From an uncultured Bacilli bacterium (GTDB lineage: Bacteria; Bacillota_I; Bacilli_A; RF39; UBA660): a DNA stretch of 39,344 nucleotides. Both the position numbers and the translations under genes were made by a program. Below the pieces are notes generated by a model, which did no database searches, was not told the DNA's origin, and saw nothing but the letters and a program-made list of their open reading frames with translations. The stretch covers positions 1 through 39,344 of the forward strand of contig CALVOC010000002.1 in assembly GCA_944350145.1 (NCBI GenBank), written 5' to 3'. Shown here in pieces: positions 1 to 38,456 of the stretch (its first letter is position 1; each line of letters starts with the position of its first letter).

Positions 1-23
1 AAGTTATCAACAACTTTTGCCAC

Positions 24-776
24 TTATTCACATATTTTTGTGATTTCTTCTACTTTGGGCTGTAAATAATAACATTTTAACTCTTTCTTTTTTATTTTAT
101 CATAAGTTCTCGGATATTTTTTTTCTGTTTCTTTTTCTTTTATAATGCTTAATAAAGTTCTTGTTCCTCCTAGATTTGGTAATTCAAATTTTTCTTTTTT
201 ATATATTTTGCAATGTAATATTTCCATTGTTTTTAATGAATTTTGAATTTCTTCATCGCTATTACCTTTCATGACTAGAAATTTTCCATTTACTTTAAGA
301 GCTGGAATATTTAATTCTAGTAAAATTCTTAAATCAGCAACTGCTCTAGAGGTTACAAAATCAAATTCTTCTCGATGAACTCTGGTAAAATCTTCTGCTC
401 TACTATATATAGTATGAACGTTTTGAAGTTGAAATTTTGAAATACATTCTTCTAAAAAAGTTATCTTTTTATTATTACTATCTAATAAAGTTATTTTTAA
501 ATTTGGAAAAACGATAGCTAAAACTAATCCTGGGAACCCTGCTCCTGTTCCAACGTCTAACAAAGTTCCTTGTTTTAAATCTGCTAGTTTTACTAAAGTA
601 AGTGAATCATAAAAATGTTTTAAAAACACTTCTTCTTCGGTTTTAATTGCTGTCAAATTGGTATGTTTGTTGTATTCTAACAAAAAGTCAGCATATTGTT
701 TTAGTTGTTCTTCCATTTTTTTGGTTAGTTCAATATTTAATTTTTTTATTTCTACTAAAAATTCTTCTCTATTCAT
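24..776 (-). CDS. rsmG: 16S rRNA (guanine527-N7)-methyltransferase RsmG (GidB)
   Basis: 250-aa ORF with SAM-binding motif LLDVGTGAGFPGL. It overlaps the mnmG stop and sits in the conserved mnmE-mnmG-rsmG origin cluster. Confidence 0.9.
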   Translation of the reverse strand: MNREEFLVEIKKLNIELTKKMEEQLKQYADFLLEYNKHTNLTAIKTEEEVFLKHFYDSLTLVKLADLKQGTLLDVGTGAGFPGLVLAIVFPNLKITLLDSNNKKITFLEECISKFQLQNVHTIYSRAEDFTRVHREEFDFVTSRAVADLRILLELNIPALKVNGKFLVMKGNSDEEIQNSLKTMEILHCKIYKKEKFELPNLGGTRTLLSIIKEKETEKKYPRTYDKIKKKELKCYYLQPKVEEITKICE

Positions 777-4056: not shown

Positions 4057-4072
4057 TATTTCCCGGGAAATA
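4057..4072. promoter_or_regulatory. Noc-binding-site-like palindrome TATTTCCCGGGAAATA (perfect 16-mer), intergenic jag/mnmE
   Basis: Exact 16-bp palindrome read in the sequence. It is identical to the B. subtilis Noc-binding site (NBS) consensus, and CCCGGG is otherwise very rare in this AT-rich window. Confidence 0.6.
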
Positions 4073-6315: not shown

Positions 6316-6526
6316 TGTGAATAAGTATCCACATTTTAAAAGATGTTTTTTTTCTGTATTTTTGAGTTTTTTCTTTAGTTATACACCTATTCACATCATG
6401 TGGATAACTTTTTTCGACATTATCCACTAATTCACAATTTATTTTTTTGGCTATTGTGAATAATGTGGATAACTGCATTTTTTTCTTTATTTTTCAGCTA
6501 TTATTTTGTTGATAAGTTGTGAATAG
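6316..6526. promoter_or_regulatory. oriC part 1: DnaA-box cluster upstream of dnaA
   Basis: Perfect TGTGGATAA at 6399-6407 and 6464-6472. TGTGAATAA at 6316-6324 and 6455-6463. One-mismatch boxes at 6325-6333, 6420-6428, 6507-6515 and 6518-6526. Located in the rpmH-dnaA intergenic region. Confidence 0.85.
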
Positions 6527-6609
6527 TATGTTAATATACATTTTAGTCTTTTAAAAAGATTTAAAAAAGTGTAGAATATTGTTGACAAGTTTTAAAGCGG
6601 GGTGGTTTC

Positions 6610-8007
6610 ATGGGTGAAAATGATCTTTGGCAATCTGTATTAAATGAGATATATCCAGAAGTAAACTCGGCTTCTTTTCATGCTTGGTTTAATGACTTAA
6701 AACTGATAAAAATTCAGAATAATAAAGTGTTTATACAAGTACCTATGGAGATCCATAAGCGAATTTTAACCACTAATTATTATAATTTAATTGATGATGC
6801 TTTTTATAAAATTACAAATCATAATTATGAATTTGAGTTTTTGCTAAAAGAAGAAATTGAAGAGAAATTTGGTGAAGTAGAACAGAATGTGGATAATGTG
6901 GATAACTTATCTACTGCTATAGTTAAAGAAGAAAAACCAGTCGTTAGAGAAGAGGAAAAATGGGAATCAAATCTTATTAAAGAACTTAATTTTGATAATT
7001 ATATAGTAGGGGATTCTAATCGGCTCGCTAAAACGGCTGGCATGATTGTAGCAGAACATCCCGGTAAAGTTCATAATCCTTTATTTATATATGGAAAGAG
7101 CGGGCTAGGGAAGACTCATTTAATGCATGCGATTGGAAATTATATTGTTGAACACTCAAAAAAAAAGGTGTTATATACTACTAGTGAAATGTTTAAAGAC
7201 GATTATATTAATATTATTAATAATGAAAATAAGGGAAATAATATTCAAGTAGCTGCAGATTTTAAAAAGAAATATCGAGAAGTAGATGTATTAATTATTG
7301 ATGATATACAGTATCTTGTAGGTGCTGAAAAAACTCAACAAGAATTTTTTCATACTTTTAATGCTTTACATCAAGCAAATAAACAGATTATAATAAGTTC
7401 AGATCGAAGTCCAGATGATTTAAAACTCTTGGAGGAACGACTTCGAAGTCGATTTATGTGGGGATTACCTGTGGATATTTATCCACCAGATTTTGAACTT
7501 CGATGTAAGATTTTAAGAGCAAAAATTAAAAATATGTCGATTTCGACTAAGATTGAAGATAGTGTCATTGAGTATATTGCTAATAACTGTCAAAATGATG
7601 TTCGATTTTTGGAAGGAGCTTTAAATCGACTTATGGCTTATACAGCAATGATTGTGCCTGAAAAGGTAGATTTAAACTTTGCAATTGAAGCATTAGCTGA
7701 TTTTGTAAATCACAATATATACACAAGAAGCAGTATTGAAGGAATTCAAAAGGCTGTTGCAGATTACTATAAAATCACGATTGATGATTTAAAAGGAAAG
7801 AAGAGAAGTGCTAATATTGCTTATCCAAGACAAATTGCCATGTATTTATCACGAACTTTAACGGAAGAAAACTTAAATAGAATTGGTTTAGAATTTGGTG
7901 GAAGAGATCATTCAACAGTTATCCACGCTTGTGATAAAATTACTAGTGATTTAAAGACAAATAAGGCTCTGGAGCAACAATTAAAAGAAATACAAAATAA
8001 AATGTAA
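6610..8007 (+). CDS. dnaA: Chromosomal replication initiator protein DnaA
   Basis: 465-aa ORF with AAA+ Walker A GKSGLGKTHL, Walker B LIIDDIQ and a C-terminal DnaA-box-binding domain (GGRDHSTVIHA). Confidence 0.97.
   Translation: MGENDLWQSVLNEIYPEVNSASFHAWFNDLKLIKIQNNKVFIQVPMEIHKRILTTNYYNLIDDAFYKITNHNYEFEFLLKEEIEEKFGEVEQNVDNVDNLSTAIVKEEKPVVREEEKWESNLIKELNFDNYIVGDSNRLAKTAGMIVAEHPGKVHNPLFIYGKSGLGKTHLMHAIGNYIVEHSKKKVLYTTSEMFKDDYINIINNENKGNNIQVAADFKKKYREVDVLIIDDIQYLVGAEKTQQEFFHTFNALHQANKQIIISSDRSPDDLKLLEERLRSRFMWGLPVDIYPPDFELRCKILRAKIKNMSISTKIEDSVIEYIANNCQNDVRFLEGALNRLMAYTAMIVPEKVDLNFAIEALADFVNHNIYTRSSIEGIQKAVADYYKITIDDLKGKKRSANIAYPRQIAMYLSRTLTEENLNRIGLEFGGRDHSTVIHACDKITSDLKTNKALEQQLKEIQNKM
6888..6905 (+). 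promoter_or_regulatory. Two abutting perfect DnaA boxes (TGTGGATAATGTGGATAA) inside the dnaA CDS
   Basis: Read directly. They encode N-V-D-N-V-D-N in the low-complexity linker (domain II region) of DnaA. Confidence 0.55.
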
Positions 8008-8150
8008 TGTGCATAAGTTTTAGAAATGTTCATAGTTATCCACGATAAAATTCGGCATTTTTTCTATTATTTAAGGGATTTTTAAAAGTTATCCACATTA
8101 TCCACCGTATTAATAATATGAATATATAAATATAATAATAAGAAAGAGGG
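8008..8150. promoter_or_regulatory. oriC part 2: DnaA boxes plus AT-rich unwinding element (dnaA-dnaN intergenic)
   Basis: Boxes TGTGCATAA 8008-8016, TTATCCACG 8036-8044, TTATCCACA 8089-8097 and the abutting TTATCCACC 8098-8106. These are followed by a roughly 40-bp, almost pure A/T stretch (8107-8145) before the dnaN RBS. Confidence 0.8.
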
Positions 8151-8156
8151 AAAGTT

Positions 8157-9275
8157 ATGAAATTTGCAATTGATAAAAACATATTATTAGAAAATTTAAA
8201 TAATGTTATTCGAGGAATATCTACAAAAAACGTAATTCCTGTATTAAATGGTATAAAATTTGAATTAAAAGACACAGGGTTAACTTTAACTGCTAGTGAT
8301 AGTGAACTTACTATTGAATCTTTTATTGAAAGCAAGTTTATTCGTAATATTGAAAGTACAGGAACTATCATTATAAGTAGTAAGTATATTTTAGATATTA
8401 TTCGTAAAATGCCTAGTGATGTTATTAACTTTGAAATGATGGATAGTTTAAAAATTAAAATTTATTCTGATTTTAATCAATATAATTTAAATTGTTTGGA
8501 TCCAAGTGAATATCCTAGTATTAAGTTGATAAGTCATAAAGATCCTATTACTATAAAGGCTAATGTTTTGAAAGAACTAATTAATCAAACTTCTTTTGCT
8601 ATTTCAACTCAAGAGTTAAGACCTATTTTAACTGGTTTAAACATGAAAATTAATGGAGATATCTTTGAAGTTATTGCTACAGACTCTTATCGTTTAGCTA
8701 AAAAGAATATTAAATTAGATGTTCCTGTTGAAACAGATGTTAATATAGTTATTCCTGGTAAAAATATTACAGAATTAGAACATATCTTAGTAGATGATGA
8801 AGATGTTTATATGAATGTATTTAATAACCGAGTTTTATTTCAATATAAAAACATTAAGTTTCAAACTAATATTTTGTCTGGTAGCTATCCAAATACTTCA
8901 AATTTAATTCCAACTGAATTTGAAATAATTGTTCAAACTAAGAAAAGTGAATTTATGGGTGCAGTTGATCGTGCCGCTTTATTAACACAAGGAAAAGATA
9001 AAAATATTATTAAAATGAAAATTGAAAATAAAGAAATGATTATTAATTCTTATGCTTCTGAAATAGGTAAAACAGAGGAGAGAGTAGCAATTGATACAGA
9101 TGAAAAATCTAATATAGATATATCTTTTAGTGCTCGTTATATGATGGATGCTTTAAAAACTATTAAAGATGAAGATATTTTAATTCTTTTAAATAATGAT
9201 GTTAAACCTATAGTACTTAAATCTTTAACAGATGAAAGTTTAATCCAATTAATTTTACCAATTAAAACTTATTAA
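8157..9275 (+). CDS. dnaN: DNA polymerase III beta sliding clamp DnaN
   Basis: 372-aa ORF directly after dnaA with typical clamp length and N-terminus (MKFAIDKNILLENL). Confidence 0.95.
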   Translation: MKFAIDKNILLENLNNVIRGISTKNVIPVLNGIKFELKDTGLTLTASDSELTIESFIESKFIRNIESTGTIIISSKYILDIIRKMPSDVINFEMMDSLKIKIYSDFNQYNLNCLDPSEYPSIKLISHKDPITIKANVLKELINQTSFAISTQELRPILTGLNMKINGDIFEVIATDSYRLAKKNIKLDVPVETDVNIVIPGKNITELEHILVDDEDVYMNVFNNRVLFQYKNIKFQTNILSGSYPNTSNLIPTEFEIIVQTKKSEFMGAVDRAALLTQGKDKNIIKMKIENKEMIINSYASEIGKTEERVAIDTDEKSNIDISFSARYMMDALKTIKDEDILILLNNDVKPIVLKSLTDESLIQLILPIKTY

Positions 9276-9380: not shown

Positions 9381-9842
9381 ATGAGAAAAGAATATGAAAT
9401 CAATGAAGAAACTTTAGCAATAATTGCTGTGGATAAGAACTATTCTGAGGTTTATGAGTTAAACGATCACTATGTTATTGAAAAAGGATCAAATAAAATT
9501 ATGGAAGATAGTTGCCGTTATTTTGGAAGTTCATTGGATGGCAGACGAAAAGGGACCGAATATATGATAGGCGTAAATTATAAAGCTCCTATTATTGTTG
9601 AAGAAACAAAAGAAATTATTTTTTTTCCGACATCTACATCTAGAGAAAATTGTAATTGGATTGGACTTAAACATATTAAATCCTATTATAGAGAAGGGGA
9701 AATTTTATTTATTGAGTTTGAAAATGATGTGAAAATTCCTTTAAGTGTTTCCTATGGGATAATCGATAATCAAGTTTTGCGTGCAAGTCGGTTAGAAAGT
9801 GCTTTACGTGGGCGAAAAATAGCAAAAAAATCTATTAAATAA
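9381..9842 (+). CDS. ComK-family protein (competence transcription factor-like), short form of 153 aa
   Basis: Block similarity to B. subtilis ComK as I recall it. SCRYFGSSLDGRRKGTEYMIGVNYKAPIIVEETKEIIFFPTSTSRENCNWIG aligns with SCRFFGSSYAGRKAGTYEVTKISHKPPIMVDPSNQIFLFPTLSSTRPQCGWI. SVSYGIIDNQVLRASRL aligns with PISYNSFENQVYRTAWL. It has its own RBS (GGGGGG) and terminators on both sides. Confidence 0.75.
   Translation: MRKEYEINEETLAIIAVDKNYSEVYELNDHYVIEKGSNKIMEDSCRYFGSSLDGRRKGTEYMIGVNYKAPIIVEETKEIIFFPTSTSRENCNWIGLKHIKSYYREGEILFIEFENDVKIPLSVSYGIIDNQVLRASRLESALRGRKIAKKSIK
9428..9436 (+). promoter_or_regulatory. Perfect DnaA box TGTGGATAA inside the comK-like CDS
   Basis: Read directly. It encodes A-V-D-K. 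Confidence 0.4.
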
Positions 9843-12951: not shown

Positions 12952-15417
12952 ATGGATCGTTTAGAAAAAAATAATATTGTTACAGAAGTTAGTAAGTCCT
13001 TTGTTGATTATTCTGTAAGTGTTATCACCTCACGTGCGTTGCCAGATTTACGAGATGGTTTAAAACCTGTTCATCGTAGAATTTTATTTTCTATGTATCA
13101 ATCTGGATATACGAATGATAAACAACATAAGAAATGTGCTCGTATTGTCGGGGATGTTATGGGTAAATTTCATCCTCATGGAGATTCTTCTATTTATGAA
13201 GCTATGGTTCGAATGGCTCAAGATTTCAGTTATCGTTATCCACTTATTGATGGTCATGGTAATTTTGGTAATATGGATGGTGATGGAGCAGCGGCAATGC
13301 GTTATACCGAGGCTCGATTGGCAAAAATTTCTTCAGAATTACTAAGGGATATTAATAAAAATACTGTAGATATGACTCCTAATTTTGATGAATTAGAGGA
13401 AGAACCAGTCGTTTTACCTAGTAGATTTCCAAATATTTTAGTAAATGGTACAATGGGAATTGCTGTAGGTATGGCAACAAATATTCCACCTCATAATTTA
13501 GGCGAGGTAATTGATGGATGTGTTGCATATATTGATAATCCAGAGATCGATACAATGGGATTAATGCAATATATTAAGGGACCAGATTTTCCAACAGGCG
13601 CTACAATTTTAGGAAATAGTGGTATTAAAAAAGCTTATGAAACCGGACGCGGCACTATTACTATTCGTAGTAAAGCCAGTATTGAAGAGAAAAATGGTCG
13701 TTTTCAAATCGTTTTTGATGAAGTTCCTTATGGTGTGAATACCTTAGAGTTGAAGAATAAGGTTGCTGAACTTGTTCATAATAAAGTAATAGAGGGAATT
13801 TCAGATTATCATTCTGATTTAAAGGATGGTATTAAAATTACAATAACTTTAAAAAGGGATGCTAATCCACAAGTTGTTTTAAATAATTTGTATAAACATA
13901 CATCTTTCCAAATTTCTTATGGAATTATTTTATTAATGATTGATCAAGGAGTTCCTAAAACGTTAGGATTGAAAGATATAATAAGTAAATACATTGATTT
14001 TCAACGAGAAGTAATTGTAAGAAGAACTCGTTTTGATTTAGAAAAAGCAGAAGCTCGTGTTCATATTTTACAAGGATTGAAGATAGCTTTAGATCATATT
14101 GATGAAGTAATTAAGATTATTCGCGGAAGTAGAACAGATGTTGAGGCTAAAGAGACTTTAATGAGTCGTTTTGGGCTTTCTGAAATTCAAAGCGATGCTA
14201 TTTTGGAAATGAGATTACGTCGTTTAACTGGTTTAGAAAAGGATAAAATTGAAGCCGAATTAGCTGAATTATTAAAGAAAATTGAAGAATATAAGGCTAT
14301 TTTAGCAAGTGATGAAAAGGTATTAGCTATTATTCGAGCAGAATTACTAGAAATAAAGGATAAATATGCAGATGAACGTCGTACAAATATTGATATGACT
14401 GCAATTGAGTATATTGAGGATGAATCCTTAATTCCAGAAGAAAATATCATGGTGGCTTTAACTAATAAGGGTTATATTAAAAGAACTACTACAGATACCT
14501 TTAAAGCACAAAATAGAGGCGGAGTTGGAGTTAAAGGTATGGCCACAAATGAAGAAGATTTTGTTGAACATTTGCTAAACTTATCCACACATGATTATGT
14601 ATTATTCTTTACAAATAAAGGTAAGGTTTATCGTTTGAAAGGTTATGAGATTCCTGAATTTAGTCGTCAATCTAAGGGAATTCCAGTTATTAACTTATTG
14701 CAAATTGATAAAGATGAATCTATTAATTCTATAATTCGTATTGATAAAGATAATAAGTATAAGTATTTATTATTTGCAACGAAGAAGGGTATTGTTAAGA
14801 AAACTTCTATTGAGGAGTTTGATAATATTCGAACTAATGGTAAGATTTGTATAACATTGAGAGAATCTGATGAATTAATTAGTGTTCGTAAAACTACTGG
14901 TAATGATCTTATTTTACTAGGTTCTAGTGCTGGTAGAATGGTAAAATTTAATGAAAATGAACTTAGAGTAATGGGAAGAACTGCAAGTGGTGTACGGGGT
15001 ATCAATTTAGATGGCACTGACTGCATTGGTGCTGAAATAGCTTCGGATGATGACAAAATTTTAATAGTAACTGAAAAAGGGTACGGAAAGCAAACAAATG
15101 TTCGTGAATACCGCCAGACAAGTCGTGGTAGTAAAGGGGTAAAGGCATTAAATATTACAGATAAAAATGGATCTATTGCTTCCTTTAAATTAGTTGGTGA
15201 AAATAGTGATGTTGTTATTATAACTAATACTGGAATGCTGATTCGTTTACCTTTGGATCAAGTTTCTACTTTAGGTCGTGTTACCCAGGGTGTGCGATTG
15301 ATTCACTTGAAGGATAACCAATCTGTTTCTACTGTTAGTATTGTGGAACATGAAGAAAAAGTGGATTACGACGTAGATGAATCAAATAATTCTAATAATG
15401 AAGAGAAATCTGAATAA
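12952..15417 (+). CDS. gyrA: DNA gyrase subunit A
   Basis: 821-aa ORF with the active-site region [10 protein letters not shown], the QRDR-like [13 protein letters not shown] and C-terminal beta-pinwheel repeats. Confidence 0.97.
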
Positions 15418-15430
15418 GATTTCTTTTTTA

Positions 15431-15446
15431 TGTTTCACGTGAAACA
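15431..15446. promoter_or_regulatory. parS-1 TGTTTCACGTGAAACA
   Basis: Perfect match to TGTTNCACGTGAAACA. Confidence 0.85.
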
Positions 15447-15456
15447 TATCTATAAA

Positions 15457-15472
15457 TATTTCCCGGGAAATA
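15457..15472. promoter_or_regulatory. NBS-like palindrome TATTTCCCGGGAAATA (perfect), between parS-1 and parS-2
   Basis: Exact 16-mer. It starts 11 nt after the end of parS-1 and is followed 5 nt later by TGTGAATAA (15478-15486). Confidence 0.6.
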
Positions 15473-15490
15473 AAATATGTGAATAACCAA

Positions 15491-15506
15491 TGTTCCACGT
15501 GAAACA
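15491..15506. promoter_or_regulatory. parS-2 TGTTCCACGTGAAACA
   Basis: Perfect match, identical to the B. subtilis consensus site. Confidence 0.85.
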
Positions 15507-15606
15507 TTGATTTATAATTTTAAACTTATTAAGCGAAAAATATTTATTTTTTTAATAAAAAAGAAATTTATTTTATTGTAGTATACATATAAAAGTTGAT
15601 AACTAA

Positions 15607-15622
15607 TGTTTCACGTGAAACG
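15607..15622. promoter_or_regulatory. parS-3 TGTTTCACGTGAAACG
   Basis: 15/16 match (last base G). Confidence 0.75.
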
Positions 15623-15709
15623 TATGAATTATTAAATAAAAATTATTTAATTATATTTTAGATTATTTTTCTTTTAAATCTTATAAATCCTTTATGTTTA
15701 TAACCATGA

Positions 15710-15725
15710 TGTTTCACGTGAAACA
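15710..15725. promoter_or_regulatory. parS-4 TGTTTCACGTGAAACA
   Basis: Perfect match. Confidence 0.85.
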
Positions 15726-15835
15726 TTCTATTTCTTGTTAGAAATAATGTAAAAATTTATTTTTTTTGATTCATTCTTATTTAAAAAATTCGTTTTTAAT
15801 TATAAATAATTAAATAATAAAGTGTATAACTGTTA

Positions 15836-15851
15836 TGTTCCACGTGAAACA
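15836..15851. promoter_or_regulatory. parS-5 TGTTCCACGTGAAACA
   Basis: Perfect match. Confidence 0.85.
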
Positions 15852-16019
15852 TAATACAAATTGTTATATAAACCATTAAATAGAGTATAATAAAAAATAT
15901 GTAAGTTTTTTTGTTAAAATTAAAGTTTAAATCAAAAAAATTGCATTTTTTCATACTATTTATTTAATCATAAATTTTTAAAATTAACTAATATGTAAAA
16001 TAGAAGTTTATAACTATGA

Positions 16020-16035
16020 TGTTTCACGTGGAACA
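16020..16035. promoter_or_regulatory. parS-6 TGTTTCACGTGGAACA
   Basis: Perfect match on the opposite strand (reverse complement is TGTTCCACGTGAAACA). Confidence 0.85.
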
Positions 16036-16043
16036 TATGTAAT

Positions 16044-16059
16044 TATTTCCTGGGAAATA
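16044..16059. promoter_or_regulatory. NBS-like palindrome TATTTCCTGGGAAATA (15/16), next to parS-6
   Basis: One C-to-T change from the perfect 16-mer. It is followed 2 nt later by TGTGAATAA (16062-16070). Confidence 0.45.
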
Positions 16060-16122
16060 TTTGTGAATAACAATTTTTTTAACATTTTTAAACAAAATTG
16101 AGGTATTTTTGTGTATAACCAA

Positions 16123-16138
16123 TGTTTCACGTGAAACG
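16123..16138. promoter_or_regulatory. parS-7 TGTTTCACGTGAAACG
   Basis: 15/16 match (last base G). Confidence 0.75.
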
Positions 16139-16185
16139 TTGATAATTTATGCTTGCATTTTTACTTTATTTTTGATAATCTTAAT

Positions 16186-16262
16186 TTGTGCAACAAATAT
16201 ATTGTAATCTGGTCAGGATCGGAAGATAGCAGCCACGTCAATCCCTATTTGTGTGCACTTTT
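16186..16262 (+). ncRNA. ffs: Signal recognition particle RNA, minimal 4.5S-like form (about 75 nt)
   Basis: Conserved helix-8 core CUGGUCAGGAUCGGAAGAUAGCAGCCACG, comparable to E. coli 4.5S GGUCAGGUCCGGAAGGAAGCAGCC, with a GGAA tetraloop. The closing stem pairs GUGCAACAAAUA with UAUUUGUGUGCAC and is followed by a U-run. It lies beside tadA and upstream of dnaX, close to the tadA-scr-dnaX arrangement in Bacillus. The ends are approximate. Confidence 0.7.
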
Positions 16263-16279
16263 TTATTGGAGGAATTTAA

Positions 16280-16731: not shown

Positions 16732-18381
16732 ATGGTGGGGTTTTCATTGGAATATAAAGTTTTATATCGTAAGTATCGTCCTAATTGTTTTAAAAATATA
16801 GTTGGGCAAGATTATACTGTTAAGATGTTGCAAAATGCAATTATTCACAATAAAATTGCTCATTCTTATTTGTTTACTGGTCCAAGAGGAACAGGAAAGA
16901 CTAGTACTGCTAAAGTGTTTGCAAAAACTATTAATTGTCAAAATATTCAAAATGGGGAAGCTTGTGGTAAATGTGCCAGCTGTCTTGCATTTGAACAAAG
17001 CCCAGACATTATTGAAATTGATGCTGCTTCTAATAATGGAGTAGATGATATTCGAGAACTTATAAACAATGTAAAAATAGCTCCTACTGAAGGGAAGTAT
17101 AAGATTTATATCATTGATGAAGTTCATATGATGACTCCAAGTGCATTTAATGCTTTGTTATTAACCTTGGAGGAACCTCCAGCTCATGCGATTTTTATCA
17201 TGGCTACCACTAATGTAGAAAGTGTTCCAATAACTATTTTATCTCGTTGTCAAAGATTTAATTTTAAGAAATTTTCTATAGAAGATCTGACTAAGCAAAT
17301 TCGGTATGTTTGTGAGCAAGAATCGATTTCTATAACAGATGATGCGGTTTTAGAGATTGCATATTTATCAGAAGGTGGAATGCGTGATGCTTTAAGTTTG
17401 TTGGATCAGTTGTCTTCAAATGGGGAAGAAATTACTGTAGATAAAATTTTAACAAATTATGGATCAATTTCTATGAAATTTATACGTGATTTAATTCATA
17501 ATGTTGAAAATAAGGAAGTTTCTTTAGTGCATCAAGCATTGATTGAGTTACAAAATACTTCGTCTGACTATAAAATTTTTATAAAAAAAATGATTCAAGA
17601 GCTTTCAGAAATTGCTGTTTCTATTGTTTCTGGAACTTATGAAGGAAAATTTAGTTATGAACAAGTTAAGGATTTGATATTTAGTTTTAACGATTGTTTA
17701 AATAAGATTAATATTCATGTTAATCCGTTTGTTTTGATTGAAGTTATATTATTTGATTCATTTTCTGAAAAAAAGTCTAAAAATGTGGATAACTATTTAG
17801 AAAATGTGGATAAAATTTTAAATAAAGAAGAAAAAAATCAAAAAATTTTGGATAATGTTGCAGTTGTTTCTAATGAAGCTGAAGAAGTTTTGAGGGAATC
17901 TACTGAAAAAGAAGATGATTATTTAAATAAACTTATTCAAATTAGAGTGAATAACTGTTTTACTGAGGCTAAAAAAGATGCATTGCTTAAAATGCAAAGT
18001 TTTTGGAGTAAATTGATTCACGAGGATAAAATAAAGCCGACTATAAAGTCTCTAATATTAGATTCCAATGTCGTTGCTGCCTCAGATAATTATTGTATTT
18101 TAACTGCTAAGCTTGATAGTACAGTTCATTTGTTAAATAAAAGTTTAGAAGCTTTAACAGAAGAATTGCACTCTTATCTTAATGATACGATTTATTTTGT
18201 TGCTTTAAATGAGAAAGATTGGCAGTTTGAAAAGAAAGAATATGTGAAAAATATTAAAAATGGTCAAAAATATACTTTAATTTCTGAAGAGACTTTAGAA
18301 GATTTAAAACCAAAAGTTTATTCTGAGATTGAAGATATTGCCACAAATGTGTTTAATCATGATAAAATAGAGTTAGTTTAG
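16732..18381 (+). CDS. dnaX: DNA polymerase III subunit tau/gamma DnaX
   Basis: Contains YRKYRP, Walker A GPRGTGKTS, a zinc module CGKCASC, Walker B IIDEVHM and SRCQRF. The true start may be TTG 16747 (GGTGGGG 6 nt upstream) rather than ATG 16732. Confidence 0.93.
   Translation: MVGFSLEYKVLYRKYRPNCFKNIVGQDYTVKMLQNAIIHNKIAHSYLFTGPRGTGKTSTAKVFAKTINCQNIQNGEACGKCASCLAFEQSPDIIEIDAASNNGVDDIRELINNVKIAPTEGKYKIYIIDEVHMMTPSAFNALLLTLEEPPAHAIFIMATTNVESVPITILSRCQRFNFKKFSIEDLTKQIRYVCEQESISITDDAVLEIAYLSEGGMRDALSLLDQLSSNGEEITVDKILTNYGSISMKFIRDLIHNVENKEVSLVHQALIELQNTSSDYKIFIKKMIQELSEIAVSIVSGTYEGKFSYEQVKDLIFSFNDCLNKINIHVNPFVLIEVILFDSFSEKKSKNVDNYLENVDKILNKEEKNQKILDNVAVVSNEAEEVLRESTEKEDDYLNKLIQIRVNNCFTEAKKDALLKMQSFWSKLIHEDKIKPTIKSLILDSNVVAASDNYCILTAKLDSTVHLLNKSLEALTEELHSYLNDTIYFVALNEKDWQFEKKEYVKNIKNGQKYTLISEETLEDLKPKVYSEIEDIATNVFNHDKIELV
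17784..17813 (+). promoter_or_regulatory. Two perfect DnaA boxes (TGTGGATAA at 17784-17792 and 17805-17813) inside the dnaX CDS
   Basis: Read directly. Same orientation with a 21-bp start-to-start spacing. They encode N-V-D-N and N-V-D-K in the variable linker of DnaX. Confidence 0.5.
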
Positions 18382-25692: not shown

Positions 25693-26223
25693 TTGGAGTG
25701 GATTTTTGAAGTGAAGGATACAGGTGTTATTCGTAAAATTGATGAGTTAGGAAGAATTGTGATTCCTAAAGAGATAAGAAGAACTTTAGGTATACGAGAT
25801 GGTGAAAATTTAGAAATTTTCGTTTCTTCTAATGGAATATGTTTGCAAAAACATTCTCGACTTTTAAATTATCAAGAATTAGCAAATAAATTATGTGAAA
25901 TCGCCTATGATATAATGAATTATTCTATTTTAATTTTTGATCGAGAACAAGTTATTGCGGCTTTTAAAAATGAATTTAAACATATATTATTAAATACTAA
26001 ATTATTAAAATTTTTAGAAAATAGGGAAACTTATGAGTCTGTTTATAAAGAAAACATTTTAAGTGAAATTGAAGAAAGTTATTATTATGTGATTCCTTTA
26101 ATTGTTTCTACAGATGTAGTGGGAGTGTTGGTTTTATTTTCTTCTCAACCTATTACAGAGGAACAGAAAAAATTTTTGAACTTTATTAATAAGCTGCTTA
26201 TTAATAAAATCGACATTTTGTAG
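25693..26223 (+). CDS. spoVT: Stage V sporulation protein T (AbrB-type SpoVT domain plus GAF-like C-terminus)
   Basis: GVIRKIDELGRIVIPKEIRRTLGIRDGENLEIF matches the SpoVT/AbrB swapped-hairpin domain. The length of about 176 aa fits SpoVT rather than AbrB. The likely start is GTG 25711, since B. subtilis SpoVT starts MKATGIVRRIDDLGR. Confidence 0.85.
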   Translation: MEWIFEVKDTGVIRKIDELGRIVIPKEIRRTLGIRDGENLEIFVSSNGICLQKHSRLLNYQELANKLCEIAYDIMNYSILIFDREQVIAAFKNEFKHILLNTKLLKFLENRETYESVYKENILSEIEESYYYVIPLIVSTDVVGVLVLFSSQPITEEQKKFLNFINKLLINKIDIL

Positions 26224-26287: not shown

Positions 26288-26487
26288 TAATCAATGAGGA
26301 AGGAAAGAGTATATAATTATTTCTTTATTAGAGAGTTTATGGTTGGTGAAAATAAACAAAGGAAAATTATAGAAGATGGCTCTGGAGTTGAAACGTTATC
26401 TCGCGTTAAGGGTAAAGTGCATGAATTATCATGAAATAAGGTGGTACCACGGGTTTTTATTCGTCCTTATGTTCATGATTTTTTTAT
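26288..26487 (+). promoter_or_regulatory. T-box riboswitch leader (probable Met specifier AUG) controlling metG
   Basis: AGAGAG/GGUUGGUG stem I elements. Candidate specifier AUG at 26376-26378. Conserved T-box sequence AAAUAAGGUGGUACCACGG at 26434-26452. The terminator helix pairs AUCAUGAAAUAAGG with CCUUAUGUUCAUGAU and is followed by a U7 run. Confidence 0.8.
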
Positions 26488-30252: not shown

Positions 30253-30297
30253 TAAAGTTTTGCTAGTTTTTTTCATATATTTTTTTAGGTGAAGCTT

Positions 30298-31071
30298 ATG
30301 ATATTTCAAGTAGGGGATCTTGTAACACGAATTAGTTACAATCATGATATTGTTTTTAAGATCTTAAATATCCGAGGAGAAGTAGCCTATTTAAAAGGAG
30401 AACAAGTTCGTTTGTATGCTGATGCTCCATTAGAAGATTTAGTTTTATATGTAAAAGAGGATCGTGATAGTGAAGAAGATTCTTTTTTGTTAGAGGATTT
30501 ATCAATGCGGGGAGATTTTTTTTATTTGCCTGGCAAAGTTTTACATATTGATGCTGATCAAGATTATTTGGAAAGATGTTTAAAGTTTTATAAGAGAAAT
30601 AAAGTGATGGCTGTTGGAAAAAGAATAGAAGAAAAAGATGTAGCTAAACAAATTAAAAATTTATTAATTGAGTATCAACCAGATATTGTGATTATTACTG
30701 GTCATGATGCTTATTATCCTAAAAAAGGTGGAATAAATGATATTCATAATTATAAAAATACTGAAAATTTTGTTCGAGCTGTAAAGGAAGCTCGCAAATA
30801 TGAAAAAAGTCATGAAAAATTAGTTATTATTGCTGGAGCTTGTCAAAGTAATTATGAAGAATTAATTAAGGCTGGAGCTAATTTTGCAAGTTCTCCAAAA
30901 CGCGTGAATATTCATGCATTAGATCCTGCAATTATTGCTACCGTGCTTGCAATGAGTGAACGTAATAAGGAAATTGATTTGGTAAATTTACTTTCTAAAA
31001 CTAAGTATGGAGCAAATGGTATGGGTGGGATTATAAGTACTGGAATGATGTATGTAGGATTTCCAAGATAG
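30298..31071 (+). CDS. yabG: Sporulation-specific protease YabG
   Basis: MIFQVGDLV is comparable to the B. subtilis YabG N-terminus. Also ITGHDAY and IAGACQSNYEELIKAGANFASSPKRVNIHALDP. ATG 30298 has AGGTGA 7 nt upstream. Confidence 0.85.
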   Translation: MIFQVGDLVTRISYNHDIVFKILNIRGEVAYLKGEQVRLYADAPLEDLVLYVKEDRDSEEDSFLLEDLSMRGDFFYLPGKVLHIDADQDYLERCLKFYKRNKVMAVGKRIEEKDVAKQIKNLLIEYQPDIVIITGHDAYYPKKGGINDIHNYKNTENFVRAVKEARKYEKSHEKLVIIAGACQSNYEELIKAGANFASSPKRVNIHALDPAIIATVLAMSERNKEIDLVNLLSKTKYGANGMGGIISTGMMYVGFPR

Positions 31072-32321: not shown

Positions 32322-32352
32322 AGTTTGGCATATATATTTTTAGGTGATAAAA

Positions 32353-32649
32353 ATGGAGACGGAAAATACTATTCCTTTAGTACCGCCTAATCATGAAGTC
32401 AAGATTATTGATCGACGGGAAATTTATATTACAGGTGTAAAAAAGATAAGTAGTTTTGATCATGAAGAATTTTTATTAGAAACCACTATGGGGATTTTGT
32501 TGTTAAAAGGAAGTGGTCTTGAAATTTTAAAATTAGATACACATGATGGTAATGTTCGGATTAAAGGGAAAATTAATAGTTATCAATATTTAGAAAATGG
32601 TAAGGGAAAAGTCAAAGAAGAGAGTTTTATGGCTAAATTATTTAAATAA
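32353..32649 (+). CDS. yabP: Sporulation protein YabP
   Basis: IIDRREIYITGVKKISSFDHEEFLLETTMGILLLKGSGLEI is typical of YabP. ATG 32353 has AGGTGA 7 nt upstream. Confidence 0.85.
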   Translation: METENTIPLVPPNHEVKIIDRREIYITGVKKISSFDHEEFLLETTMGILLLKGSGLEILKLDTHDGNVRIKGKINSYQYLENGKGKVKEESFMAKLFK

Positions 32650-36555: not shown

Positions 36556-37605
36556 TTATTTCAGGTAATTAACTGCCTCTATAAGTTCTTCTATATCTTT
36601 ATGAGTATAAACTTTATCTGTTATATCTGTACTAGCATGTCCCATTATTCTTTTTATACATAATTTATTAGCAGGTGTTCTGTCCATACGAGTGGCAAAA
36701 GTATGTCTTGTGTCATGAGGTTTATGATTTTTTGAAAACTCTAACTGTTCCATCATAATATCCCATTTTTCTCTTCTATAATTAGAGTATTTCATTTGTT
36801 TGCCTAAAGAATTAACGATTAAATAATCGCATTCAACTTCAACTGCTTTATCATAATATCTTTGGATAAGTGGTATTATTCTTTTATGAAGTGGTATTAC
36901 TCTATCTATTCCTGCTTCTGTTTTTAATCCACCGATCATATATTCTTTATCAATATGAACATTTTCAATTTTAATGTCTAATAATTCGCTTATTCTTAAG
37001 CCTGTGTAAATAAGTATCAATATAGTATCAATAAAATCCATTCTGTCGATATTTTCCCATAACTTGTCTATTTCTTCTTCCTCAAATGGTATTCGTACTA
37101 ATTTGGTCGTTTTTTTGCCTATGTCGATGTATTCTGAATATTTTTTAACATCTATATCATGTTTAATTGCATAATCGTACATTTGATGCCACATAATTTT
37201 GAATGCTTTTTTTGCACTCCATTTATCACCCATGCCATCAACTATTGCTTGCAAATGAGTTAGTCTAACATCGACAAACGGTATATCTTTTATATCTTGA
37301 CAATAATTCCAACACATATTGTATACTTGATGTGTTTTTTTAGAAATTTTAGGATATTTTTCATCTTGCCATTTTTGGTGAAGTTCTTCAACGGTTATTT
37401 TTTTAGCATCAATGTTATAAGGATTTTCATTAAATAATGCTAATGCTTGTAATGCTTGCTGTCTTGTTTCAAAATATCCAATAGTTTGCCTCTTTTGTAC
37501 TCCGTTTTCATTCCATCCAATAGTTTTTCTTACTCTATAAGGGTTTCTTCTATTTCCTGATAATTTTTCGATTATTCCGTAGTTATTAGGTAGTTTTATA
37601 AGACA
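36556..37605 (-). CDS. int: Phage tyrosine integrase. The reading frame is open for 349 codons but has no in-frame ATG at its 5' end.
   Basis: Catalytic residues are TGLRISELL (Arg), HDTRHTFATR (H-x-x-R) and HASTDITDKVYTH (Tyr). My translation upstream of the ORF-track ATG (37317) stays open and reads KLPNNYGIIEKLSGNRRNPYRVRKTIGWNENGVQKRQTIGYFETRQQALQALALFNENPYN, a typical integrase N-terminal domain. The SD-preceded ATG at 37606 is in a different frame (see findings). Confidence 0.85.
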   Translation of the reverse strand, partial: CLIKLPNNYGIIEKLSGNRRNPYRVRKTIGWNENGVQKRQTIGYFETRQQALQALALFNENPYNIDAKKITVEELHQKWQDEKYPKISKKTHQVYNMCWNYCQDIKDIPFVDVRLTHLQAIVDGMGDKWSAKKAFKIMWHQMYDYAIKHDIDVKKYSEYIDIGKKTTKLVRIPFEEEEIDKLWENIDRMDFIDTILILIYTGLRISELLDIKIENVHIDKEYMIGGLKTEAGIDRVIPLHKRIIPLIQRYYDKAVEVECDYLIVNSLGKQMKYSNYRREKWDIMMEQLEFSKNHKPHDTRHTFATRMDRTPANKLCIKRIMGHASTDITDKVYTHKDIEELIEAVNYLK

Positions 37606-37689
37606 TCACCACCTAAATGTAGATTGTATTTCATATATCAAAATCCTCCTATTTCTTGTGTTTTTCTTTTGCTTTTGATATAATGAAAT

Positions 37690-37792
37690 AGAAAAATCCA
37701 TAACATTATATCTTATATTTTGTTTTTTAGTTTTGCGGACTAAAAGTGATTTTTCATTCAAGACTTACTGTTCGAGCAGTAGGTCTTTTTTT
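37690..37792 (+). ncRNA. Candidate prophage small RNA of about 100 nt (promoter plus intrinsic terminator, no ORF)
   Basis: -35 TTGTGT at 37656-37661, 17-bp spacer, extended -10 TGATATAAT at 37676-37684. The terminator is an 11-bp stem, AAGACTTACTG/CAGTAGGTCTT (37760-37787), followed by a T-run. The transcript would contain the 23-nt element at 37723-37745. Confidence 0.35.
37723..37745 (+). repeat. Copy A of a 23-bp perfect inverted repeat (TTTTTTAGTTTTGCGGACTAAAA)
   Basis: It is the exact reverse complement of 38849-38871. Confidence 0.9.
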
Positions 37793-38456
37793 ATTCTTCC
37801 ATATAACTTATGCTGGAAATTTTTACTCTAGCGATACCAATTACTTTGACTGGCAAGTTTATTATTTCTTCTTTAGTATATGACGTAGGAAGATATCCAT
37901 CATCATTTTCAATATTTAGTGGTATTAATCTAATACCGTCTTCTTTTAATTTAAGAACCTTGAAAGTTGCATCGTCACCATTTACCATCACGCAGCAATC
38001 TTTATTATTGGCATATTGAAAATCATTTGTTTCTTCAAAAATAACGGTATCATTTGGCATATACTTCGGGCTCATGCTATTACCACTAATTTTTAAACCA
38101 TAATATTTTTTACTTTGCCTTATCCATTCTTTTGGTATTTCTACATAATCTAAAATATCTTCTTGTGCTTCAATTGGTGTACCTGCTTTTATCACTCCTA
38201 AAACTGGCACTTTCACTCTCTCTACATTTAAGTCGATTAATTCGGCATTATCAAATCTTAAATCTGAGCCTATGAAGTCGGGAACGGGAACGTCGAGTGC
38301 TTCTGCTACCTTTATTACATTTTCAACTGTCGTATCCATTCCTTTTTCCCATAGTGAGATAGTAGATTGATCAACGCCAATTTTTTTGGCTAATTCTTTT
38401 TGAGAGATCCCTTTTTGTTTTCTGATATATGGAAGATTATTATTGAAGTAACTCAT
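37791..38456 (-). CDS. Phage repressor, XRE-type HTH fused to an S24 (LexA/CI-like) autopeptidase domain
   Basis: The N-terminal HTH reads KGISQKELAKKIGVDQSTISLWEKG. The C-terminal S24 domain has ISGNSMSP (Ser) and TFKVLKL (Lys). It is divergent from the cro-like gene. Confidence 0.85.
   Translation of the reverse strand: MSYFNNNLPYIRKQKGISQKELAKKIGVDQSTISLWEKGMDTTVENVIKVAEALDVPVPDFIGSDLRFDNAELIDLNVERVKVPVLGVIKAGTPIEAQEDILDYVEIPKEWIRQSKKYYGLKISGNSMSPKYMPNDTVIFEETNDFQYANNKDCCVMVNGDDATFKVLKLKEDGIRLIPLNIENDDGYLPTSYTKEEIINLPVKVIGIARVKISSISYMEE

Follow-up and report, generated by a model that had tools for sequence, protein, structure and literature searches.

The stretch analysed here, called the window in the following, comprises 39,344 nucleotides of contig CALVOC010000002.1 from an uncultured low-GC Bacilli bacterium of the gut. 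Between gyrA and ffs, the gene for the small SRP RNA, it contains an AT-rich gap of 0.76 kb, which lies 9 kb to the right of the replication origin (oriC) and holds an array of parS sites, the loading sites of ParB. Judged from its sequence, this gap is probably a compact centromere that doubles as an origin-proximal cluster of boxes for the initiator DnaA. From the second ParB loading site onwards, each would be accompanied at a few base pairs' distance by a DnaA box, always on the side towards oriC and in one orientation, with two Noc-binding sites (NBS) interleaved. The adjacency of DnaA boxes and parS is kept in many related species, which suggests that the start of replication is coupled to segregation at this locus.

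The array (15431-16138) holds seven parS-like 16-mers with no or one mismatch to TGTTTCACGTGAAACA, against 0.21 expected, and no further parS was found in the 39-kb window. Canonical 16-bp parS palindromes close to the origin are what a ParABS centromere is recognised by. In effect the site is an 18-mer whose A at -1 and T at +17 hardly ever vary; C at -3 and G at +19 are frequent as well. The first site, parS-1 (15431-15446), is a perfect 16-mer, conserved in the relatives L001 and L002, and the only one without a box. The other six, parS-2 (15491-15506), parS-3 (15607-15622), parS-4 (15710-15725), parS-5 (15836-15851), parS-6 (16020-16035) and parS-7 (16123-16138), are each preceded on the plus strand by a box-like 9-mer followed by C, at distances of 4, 4, 6, 6, 6 and 4 nt from the 16-mer. 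These 9-mers are TGTGAATAA (from 15478), AGTTGATAA (15594), TGTTTATAA (15695), AGTGTATAA (15821), AGTTTATAA (16005) and TGTGTATAA (16110). With the trailing C, they give box 2 (TGTGAATAAC, or TTATTCACA on the minus strand; 15478-15487), box 3 (AGTTGATAAC; 15594-15603), box 4 (TGTTTATAAC; 15695-15704), which is identical in L001, box 5 (AGTGTATAAC; 15821-15830), box 6 (AGTTTATAAC; 16005-16014), of which nine of the ten bases are kept in L001, and box 7 (TGTGTATAAC; 16110-16119). Box 2 begins 6 nt after a perfect NBS, ATTTCCCGGGAAAT (15458-15471), which lies inside a 16-bp palindrome (15457-15472).

An earlier note on this DNA had described the pattern as xGTxxATAAC, 4 or 6 nt upstream of six of the seven parS sites and in a single orientation; all its coordinates and sequences are correct. 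Its further statements, that each box is followed by C and that two boxes (2 and 7) match TTATNCACA exactly, the other four having one or two mismatches, hold as well. It had also listed an extra TGTGAATAA at 16062-16070 without an adjacent parS. This copy is present, exact and followed by C (box TGTGAATAAC, 16062-16071, plus strand), but it is not truly an orphan, because it stands 3 nt past an NBS with one mismatch (ATTTCCTGGGAAAT; 16045-16058). The two interleaved NBS had been missed, and so had an eighth box-like 9-mer, CGTTGATAA (16137-16145, plus strand), which overlaps the right end of parS-7. The array contains eight box-like 9-mers in 0.7 kb, 9 kb from dnaA, seven of which score at least 6 with the matrix described next. 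Several boxes in an origin-proximal intergenic region outside oriC are the mark of a DnaA-box cluster (DBC), of which datA is the like.

The flank is best read as a DnaA box. Scores were taken from a matrix built on 150 boxes to which DnaA of B. subtilis binds in vitro (PMC4447404, Tables S2 and S3), a source independent of the array. Boxes 2 to 7 score 11.3, 7.2, 6.6, 6.1, 2.8 and 9.95, so that five of the six reach at least 6, a value attained by 0.4% of the 9-mers in the window; the box at 16062 scores 11.3 and the eighth 9-mer 8.0, and the oriC boxes range from 6.9 to 14.4. The variable third position of the array motif, G or T, corresponds to box position 6, which is C in 100 of the bound boxes, A in 45, and G or T almost never (PMC4447404). 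The G/T degeneracy of the array is thus what DnaA tolerates, and functional boxes with two or three mismatches have been reported (PMC4447404). The oriC boxes at 6316-6526 served as the reference for the genome's own box form. Boxes of oriC read TGTGGATAAC or GTTATCCACA, extra C included, and are nearer to the consensus than those of the array; because they carry it, the extra C belongs to the local form of the box.

For comparison, 80 species-level genomes, almost all of them metagenome bins, were found via GyrA and divided into clades by average-linkage clustering of this protein. Their records bear titles such as 'uncultured Bacilli', 'Tenericutes', Candidatus Ventrenecus, Onthousia, Coprovivens, Scybalousia and Clostridium sp. 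CAG:710; the group belongs to the GTDB order RF39, an assignment that the NCBI taxonomy does not confirm. Directly downstream of gyrA, one to nine parS sites are found in 76 of the 80, and the contigs of the remaining four stop just after gyrA. Since the arrays break assemblies, a point of practical relevance for metagenomics, these counts are lower bounds. In 28 of the 80, the contig breaks off inside or at the parS array, less than 1.6 kb past the gyrA stop codon.

Among these relatives, GT..ATAA cores are followed by C in 48% of cases beside parS, versus 12% in spacers and 8% in the background. An unbiased comparison of parS flanks with array spacers returned GATAAC, TGATAAC, GATAACT and GTGAATA as the most enriched k-mers. 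The strict motif TGTGNATAA shows an 8-fold enrichment over array spacers when counted within 16 nt of parS, and scrambled motifs are at 0.3-0.4-fold. When boxes scoring at least 6 were sought within 18 nt of unique parS sites and in spacer controls, they were present near 78% of parS versus 9% of controls in the window's clade (p 4e-21), 65% versus 7% in clades 01/02 and 75% versus 17% in clades 09/12. The alignment of array windows and orthologous arrays that the earlier note had proposed as a check thus finds the flank conserved beyond the spacers in the window's clade. The resemblance to a DnaA box which that note had seen is borne out by the oriC-like extended form, by conservation in ten species of the clade and by enrichment under the independent matrix.

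An improbable alternative is that the flank is a site for another sequence-specific protein, or a structural DNA element, with the looks of a DnaA box. It draws on the pattern of conservation, which is strongest in GT..ATAAC and loose in the middle, on T outnumbering G where the DnaA consensus has G, and on the oriC boxes of this genome being nearly all of the GTG type. Yet A at position 6 is the normal second choice of B. subtilis DnaA (PMC4447404), sister species carry a perfect TGTGGATAAC at orthologous positions, a perfect TTATCCACA abuts parS in L020 and L051, and the DnaA matrix distinguishes parS flanks from spacers. Other identities were rejected on direct reading: Fur/PerR 7-1-7 palindromes, Spo0A 0A boxes and a degenerate parS half-site lack a second half or stand in the wrong register, and extended -10 elements do not fit. 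A promoter with TATAAC as its -10 element was discarded too, as promoter-like sites are not enriched (7 versus 10.4 expected) and GGATAAC boxes do not fit. Nor is the box tied to Noc sites rather than to parS, for it lies within 18 nt of only 26 of 142 NBS in arrays and 11 of 61 outside them. DnaA is likely to bind the array boxes, as far as sequence comparison can tell.

The pairing of box and parS is far from chance. The window contains 27 copies of the motif GTNNATAAC where 5.2 are expected, a 5-fold excess across this whole origin-proximal DNA; seven copies lie in the array, all on the plus strand, and the copies elsewhere cluster at oriC. Computed from the base composition of the array itself, the probability that at least six of seven parS sites have GTNNATAAC nearby is 3e-21 at the observed offsets; with both sides, both orientations and all offsets up to 20 nt permitted, it is 5e-14. 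In an alignment of the seven 76-nt windows around the parS sites, conservation is confined to box and parS. Direct-repeat families stop at 31-34 nt, which is the length of box, gap and parS. The repeated unit is indeed a composite of about 30 bp, as had been claimed, and a long repeat unit is ruled out, since the similarity ends there.

Divergence between species bears on the same point. GyrA of L001/L002 is 95% identical to that of the window and gyrA DNA 86%, and the array spacers are 56% identical, little above unrelated AT-rich DNA. These genomes have a parS at the positions of five of the seven sites; three of the five have a box in both, and these boxes are 80-100% identical. Units without a positional counterpart between the window and L001/L002 bear boxes of their own. 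The position orthologous to box 2 reads TGTTTATAAC or TGTGGATAAC in relatives, and across ten species of the window's clade orthologous boxes alternate among TGTGAATAAC, TGTTTATAAC and the perfect TGTGGATAAC. Conserved boxes amid decayed spacers therefore form a footprint of selection on the box, unlike passenger sequence. By these comparisons, the flank is a separate, selected element and not hitch-hiking repeat DNA.

A neutral box that is merely carried along when box-parS units are duplicated is very unlikely, although the arrays of relatives do grow by tandem duplication (units of 126, 76, 63 and 36 bp), the short gap sequences in the window (CCA, CTA, CCATG and CTATG) look related, and the orientation is uniform within arrays. 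The similarity between copies nevertheless stops precisely at the outer edge of the box, the boxes have outlasted the spacers between species, and boxes stand beside parS in three separate clades with three geometries. Moreover, a passenger would not retain the DnaA-type degeneracy and the trailing C.

These geometries differ as follows. The window's clade has the box upstream of parS, the AAC end pointing to the site at 2-5 nt from the 18-mer, with a strand ratio of 53:1. In clades 01/02, it is downstream, its TGT end abuts the 18-mer (parS-TGTTGATAAC), and the boxes occupy the same chromosomal strand as there (33:0). Clades 09/12 show the mirror image of the latter arrangement, upstream and usually with an NBS before the box, at a strand ratio of 1:23. 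A unit in L020 (6492-6535) reads ATTTCCCGGGAAAT-aatt-TTATCCACA-A-TGTTTCACGTGAAACA. The spacing between box and parS, 4 or 6 nt in the window, varies from 0 to 9 nt in relatives, and about half of the 80 related species have no box-parS composites.

The earlier note had offered, as a second reading, an extended recognition element for a ParB with additional contacts. The effective length of parS in this lineage, 18 to 22 positions if the frequent C at -3 and G at +19 are counted, could be taken as a sign that its ParB touches DNA outside the 16-mer. That extension is symmetric, however, whereas the box is one-sided on a palindrome. Its spacing is variable, other clades have it on the opposite side or inverted, and it is missing at parS-1, in about half of the relatives and in many species with identical parS. 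The one-sidedness, the variable spacing and the alternative geometries therefore exclude an extended ParB operator as a working explanation, and we regard it as extremely improbable.

Noc sites recur in these arrays. Six NBS occur in the window, where 0.24 would be expected: two lie in the array and the others at 4058, 18481, 21482 and 26721. In relatives, NBS density is 2.55 per kb in the arrays versus 0.088 per kb outside, a 29-fold difference, and the arrays of 52 of 77 parS-bearing loci (76 relatives and the window) contain them. No description of parS arrays interleaved with Noc sites was found in the literature. The partner of parS depends on the clade: clades 01/02 have boxes without NBS, the window's clade has boxes and few NBS, clade 13 has NBS without boxes, and clades 09/12 have NBS-box-parS triple units. 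Because independent contrasts are few, this alternation of box and Noc site is a lead only. The clade-wise switching of the parS partner offers a comparative handle that is missing in model organisms.

Tandem arrays with fixed units occur in several relatives (L027, L028, L037, L044, L063, L065 and L067, about 6470-7900; L015/L021; L032; L074/L052). Units of 126-127 bp contain one parS and one NBS 42-43 nt downstream of it, and 126 bp corresponds to about 12 helical turns; in the clade with these units, each unit has one parS, one Noc site and no box. The tandem units of other relatives measure 62-63 bp (parS and NBS), 76 bp, or 36-37 bp (parS only).

A candidate for the protein that reads the NBS is found in L083, a 59-kb metagenome contig from a near-identical relative (RsmG 98%). 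Beside rsmG it encodes a Noc-like member of the ParB family (7804-9033; 409 aa), whose closest solved structure is Noc (7NG0, 6e-57). The protein has a long low-complexity linker and a C-terminal domain and reads ...SQSSIANKLRLLN...SERHAR. Its specificity residues, mapped by hand on an alignment, are Q, K, N and R. These fit the rules for NBS-type proteins (Q173, K179/K184 and R201; PMC7383237), which makes it NBS-type. The open reading frame (ORF) starts five residues before the ParB N-domain, with in-frame stops upstream; another start codon may be used, and the protein may have a different membrane anchor. In L083, no soj or spo0J follows this gene; the next gene encodes a PBP on the opposite strand. 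Two independent assemblies with an identical RsmG, L081 and L082, both stop at rsmG, as does the window (1-776), which suggests a repeat or an assembly-breaking element just past rsmG in the window's species.

The gene order of the 39-kb window is Bacillus-like and identifies the origin region. To the left of oriC, on the minus strand, lie rsmG, mnmG, mnmE, jag, yidC and rnpA. The left part of oriC is a DnaA-box cluster upstream of dnaA (6316-6526; TGTGGATAAC twice, TGTGAATAA twice and others). The dnaA gene (6610-8007) is followed by the right part, with boxes in the dnaA-dnaN gap (8008-8106; GTTATCCACA, TTATCCACC and others) and then AT-rich DNA. Further to the right follow dnaN, a comK-like ORF, recF, gyrB and gyrA (12952-15417), the gap with the array, ffs (16179-16274, plus strand; Rfam RF00169, 57 bits) as the right boundary of the gap, and tadA, dnaX, ybaB and recR. 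The GC content is about 28% in the whole window and 19% in the gap between gyrA and ffs.

Could the array itself be part of the replication origin, as an auxiliary region of DnaA assembly or unwinding that encloses parS, a role proposed for secondary replicons in Deinococcus? Its low GC content, its eight DnaA-type boxes in one orientation and its distance of 9 kb from dnaA would fit, and Deinococcus cisII/cisMP unite ori and parS-like functions (PMC7671480). On the other side, dnaA lies between the two parts of a canonical bipartite oriC that has consensus boxes, the dnaA-dnaN gap containing tandem boxes and then AT-rich DNA, and it is at dnaA that the genes change orientation. The boxes of the array, more than 100 bp apart, are too sparse for a contiguous DnaA oligomer. 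Such a role is extremely improbable. GC skew was tried as a means of placing the origin at the array instead of at dnaA and was uninformative, because the skew tracks gene orientation here.

No evidence of transcription was found in the 0.76-kb gap between gyrA and ffs, and the only RNA elements that Rfam identified in the window are ffs and a T-box. On direct reading, a weak hairpin (AGAAATC/GATTTCT) with a T-run spans the gyrA stop codon (15404-15429, plus strand). It is likely the gyrA terminator and the left edge of an untranscribed gap. A terminator scan, which requires at least three GC pairs, made no call there; relatives have more distinct hairpins at this position.

How a centromere that is also a DnaA-box cluster might work can be outlined in two steps. 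In the first, DnaA would occupy the mostly sub-consensus boxes, so that the array takes up initiator near the origin, much like the DnaA-box clusters outside oriC in B. subtilis or like datA. In E. coli, datA is a DnaA-box cluster outside oriC and a close comparison. The second builds on the fact that ParB-CTP clamps have to leave parS by sliding, which a protein on the DNA prevents on its side: with DnaA 0-6 bp away, parS would have a barrier on one flank, or ParB a competitor. ParB or Noc loading and DnaA occupancy would then depend on each other, which would couple initiation potential to the state of the centromere; traffic of ParB or Noc could in turn alter DnaA occupancy. The suggestion in the earlier note that DnaA and ParB bind together or compete is a reasonable reading on these terms, the flank being best read as a DnaA box, with binding as a prediction.

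The first step, occupancy and titration by a DnaA-box cluster, is likelier than the second. Whether the adjacency of box and parS is itself functional is, on sequence grounds, an evenly balanced matter, and either specific consequence, barrier or titration, is doubtful when taken singly. A stronger view, which we consider rather unlikely, is that the compact centromere of these gut Bacilli with reduced genomes functions solely as a composite in which every parS has, at base-pair distance, a partner site for DnaA or Noc depending on the clade, or in a few clades for both. The neighbour would then gate the loading or escape of ParB-CTP clamps, or DnaA would license the centromere as in Caulobacter. 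If this were true, a single 0.7-kb stretch of DNA would serve to read out the start of replication, chromosome segregation and the control of division.

Several points weigh against a centromere that is at the same time a DnaA-box cluster. DnaA binding at the array is a prediction from sequence, four of the six boxes are sub-consensus, and one of them scores just 2.8. In the large clade with 126-bp tandem units, a box is near 3% of parS versus 4% of controls. A box cannot be required for parS function in general, because roughly half of the related species have none near parS. Because the geometry varies by clade, it argues against one conserved contact surface between DnaA and ParB, and a barrier would face differing directions, though the differing geometries are compatible with a steric relation, be it barrier or competition. 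The uniform orientation of the boxes within arrays (53:1, 33:0 and 1:23) could reflect duplication of units. No parS-type ParB and no ParA was found in the window or in the examined loci of the relatives, and tblastn of these loci returned no ParB-family gene beyond the Noc-like one, a search limited by the fact that the three contigs with identical RsmG all end at rsmG. The sole ParB-family gene beside rsmG in the near-identical relative is the Noc-like one. The unlocated parS-type ParB is the main gap in the reading of the array as a centromere.

Parts of this picture have counterparts elsewhere: DnaA at centromeres, an initiator beside parS, overlapping boxes and iterons, and DnaA-box clusters near oriC are all known already. 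The parS locus of Caulobacter crescentus contains boxes to which DnaA binds (Mera, Kalogeraki & Shapiro 2014, summarised in PMC6399470). There too, initiator boxes lie inside a chromosomal centromere near the origin, the level of DnaA is linked to the behaviour of the centromere, and the boxes can matter for segregation itself (PMC6399470). Clusters of DnaA boxes close to oriC keep initiation in check in B. subtilis (Okumura et al. 2012, PMC3245932). Their loss is near-lethal in combination with a spo0J deletion, a synthetic sickness that acts through Soj-activated DnaA (PMC3245932). The likeness to these clusters consists of several DnaA boxes in an intergenic gap near oriC. Unlike the boxes of Caulobacter, those of the array come one per parS, 0-6 bp away, in a fixed orientation, with Noc sites interleaved and in a Firmicute-type host; unlike in B. 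subtilis, where clusters and parS are separate loci, the two are merged unit by unit. For both comparisons, what is said of the present locus is drawn from its sequence.

The cisII/cisMP regions of Deinococcus radiodurans are also repeat arrays that join DnaA boxes with ParB sites: putative DnaA boxes overlap ParB-binding iterons, and both proteins bind in vitro (PMC7671480). These arrays, however, are on secondary replicons, consist of non-canonical boxes and iterons and act as origins, whereas the array described here has canonical parS and near-canonical boxes and lies on the main chromosome next to a separate oriC. On chromosome II of Vibrio cholerae, the rctA/parS2-B centromere adjoins initiator sites, and the proteins occupy neighbouring zones (summarised in PMC6399470). 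Its initiator is RctB and not DnaA, and it is a single locus rather than a repeated composite. In view of the Caulobacter (PMC6399470) and Deinococcus (PMC7671480) precedents, the remark in the earlier note that it knew of no described composite DnaA-box/parS unit is too strong if read as a statement that there is none. What stands is that the literature yielded no description of canonical parS sites with a DnaA box directly beside each of them.

A protein tightly bound to DNA attenuates the spreading of ParB-CTP on one side (Jalal et al. 2020, PMC7053999). Roadblocks of that kind were engineered or incidental; here, one would be built into each loading site. No paper was found on DnaA as a ParB roadblock, nor on parS arrays in this bacterial group. 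Noc of S. aureus restrains DnaA-dependent initiation (PMC5540599). As in the Noc/NBS systems of Firmicutes, there are perfect NBS palindromes here and a Noc-type paralogue with the Q173/K179/R201 residues beside rsmG in the near-identical relative. The NBS of B. subtilis and S. aureus are described as scattered round the chromosome (PMC7383237, PMC5540599), in contrast to their concentration inside the parS array here, and the protein of L083, with its 409 aa, seems to be without an N-terminal amphipathic membrane helix.

Crosstalk between DnaA and ParABS is known genetically in Bacillus, Caulobacter and Vibrio, and its physical basis at the level of DNA is mostly unclear. What the present locus provides is a conserved, naturally occurring DNA unit of very small size, made up of a 10-bp box, a gap of 3-5 bp and an 18-bp parS, sometimes with a Noc site before it. 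This is DNA on which DnaA, ParB and Noc would have to meet.

Some further features of the window were recorded. Two abutting perfect TGTGGATAA boxes lie within the dnaA coding sequence (6888-6905), and two perfect boxes, 21 nt apart, within that of dnaX (17784-17813). The ORF between dnaN and recF (9381-9842) belongs to the ComK family (PF06338, 2e-36); in B. subtilis, this position is occupied by the small yaaA gene. Sporulation genes of the SpoVT, YabG and YabP families are present at 25693-26223, 30289-31071 and 32344-32649 in this low-GC lineage, several relatives of which are titled 'Tenericutes' or 'Mycoplasma' in their records. The T-box leader (26288-26471; 113 bits) lies upstream of the methionyl-tRNA synthetase gene and is an ordinary feature. 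A tyrosine integrase and an S24/HTH repressor at 36556-38456, on the minus strand and in opposite orientation, coincide with a local reversal of GC skew and likely mark the edge of an integrated element.

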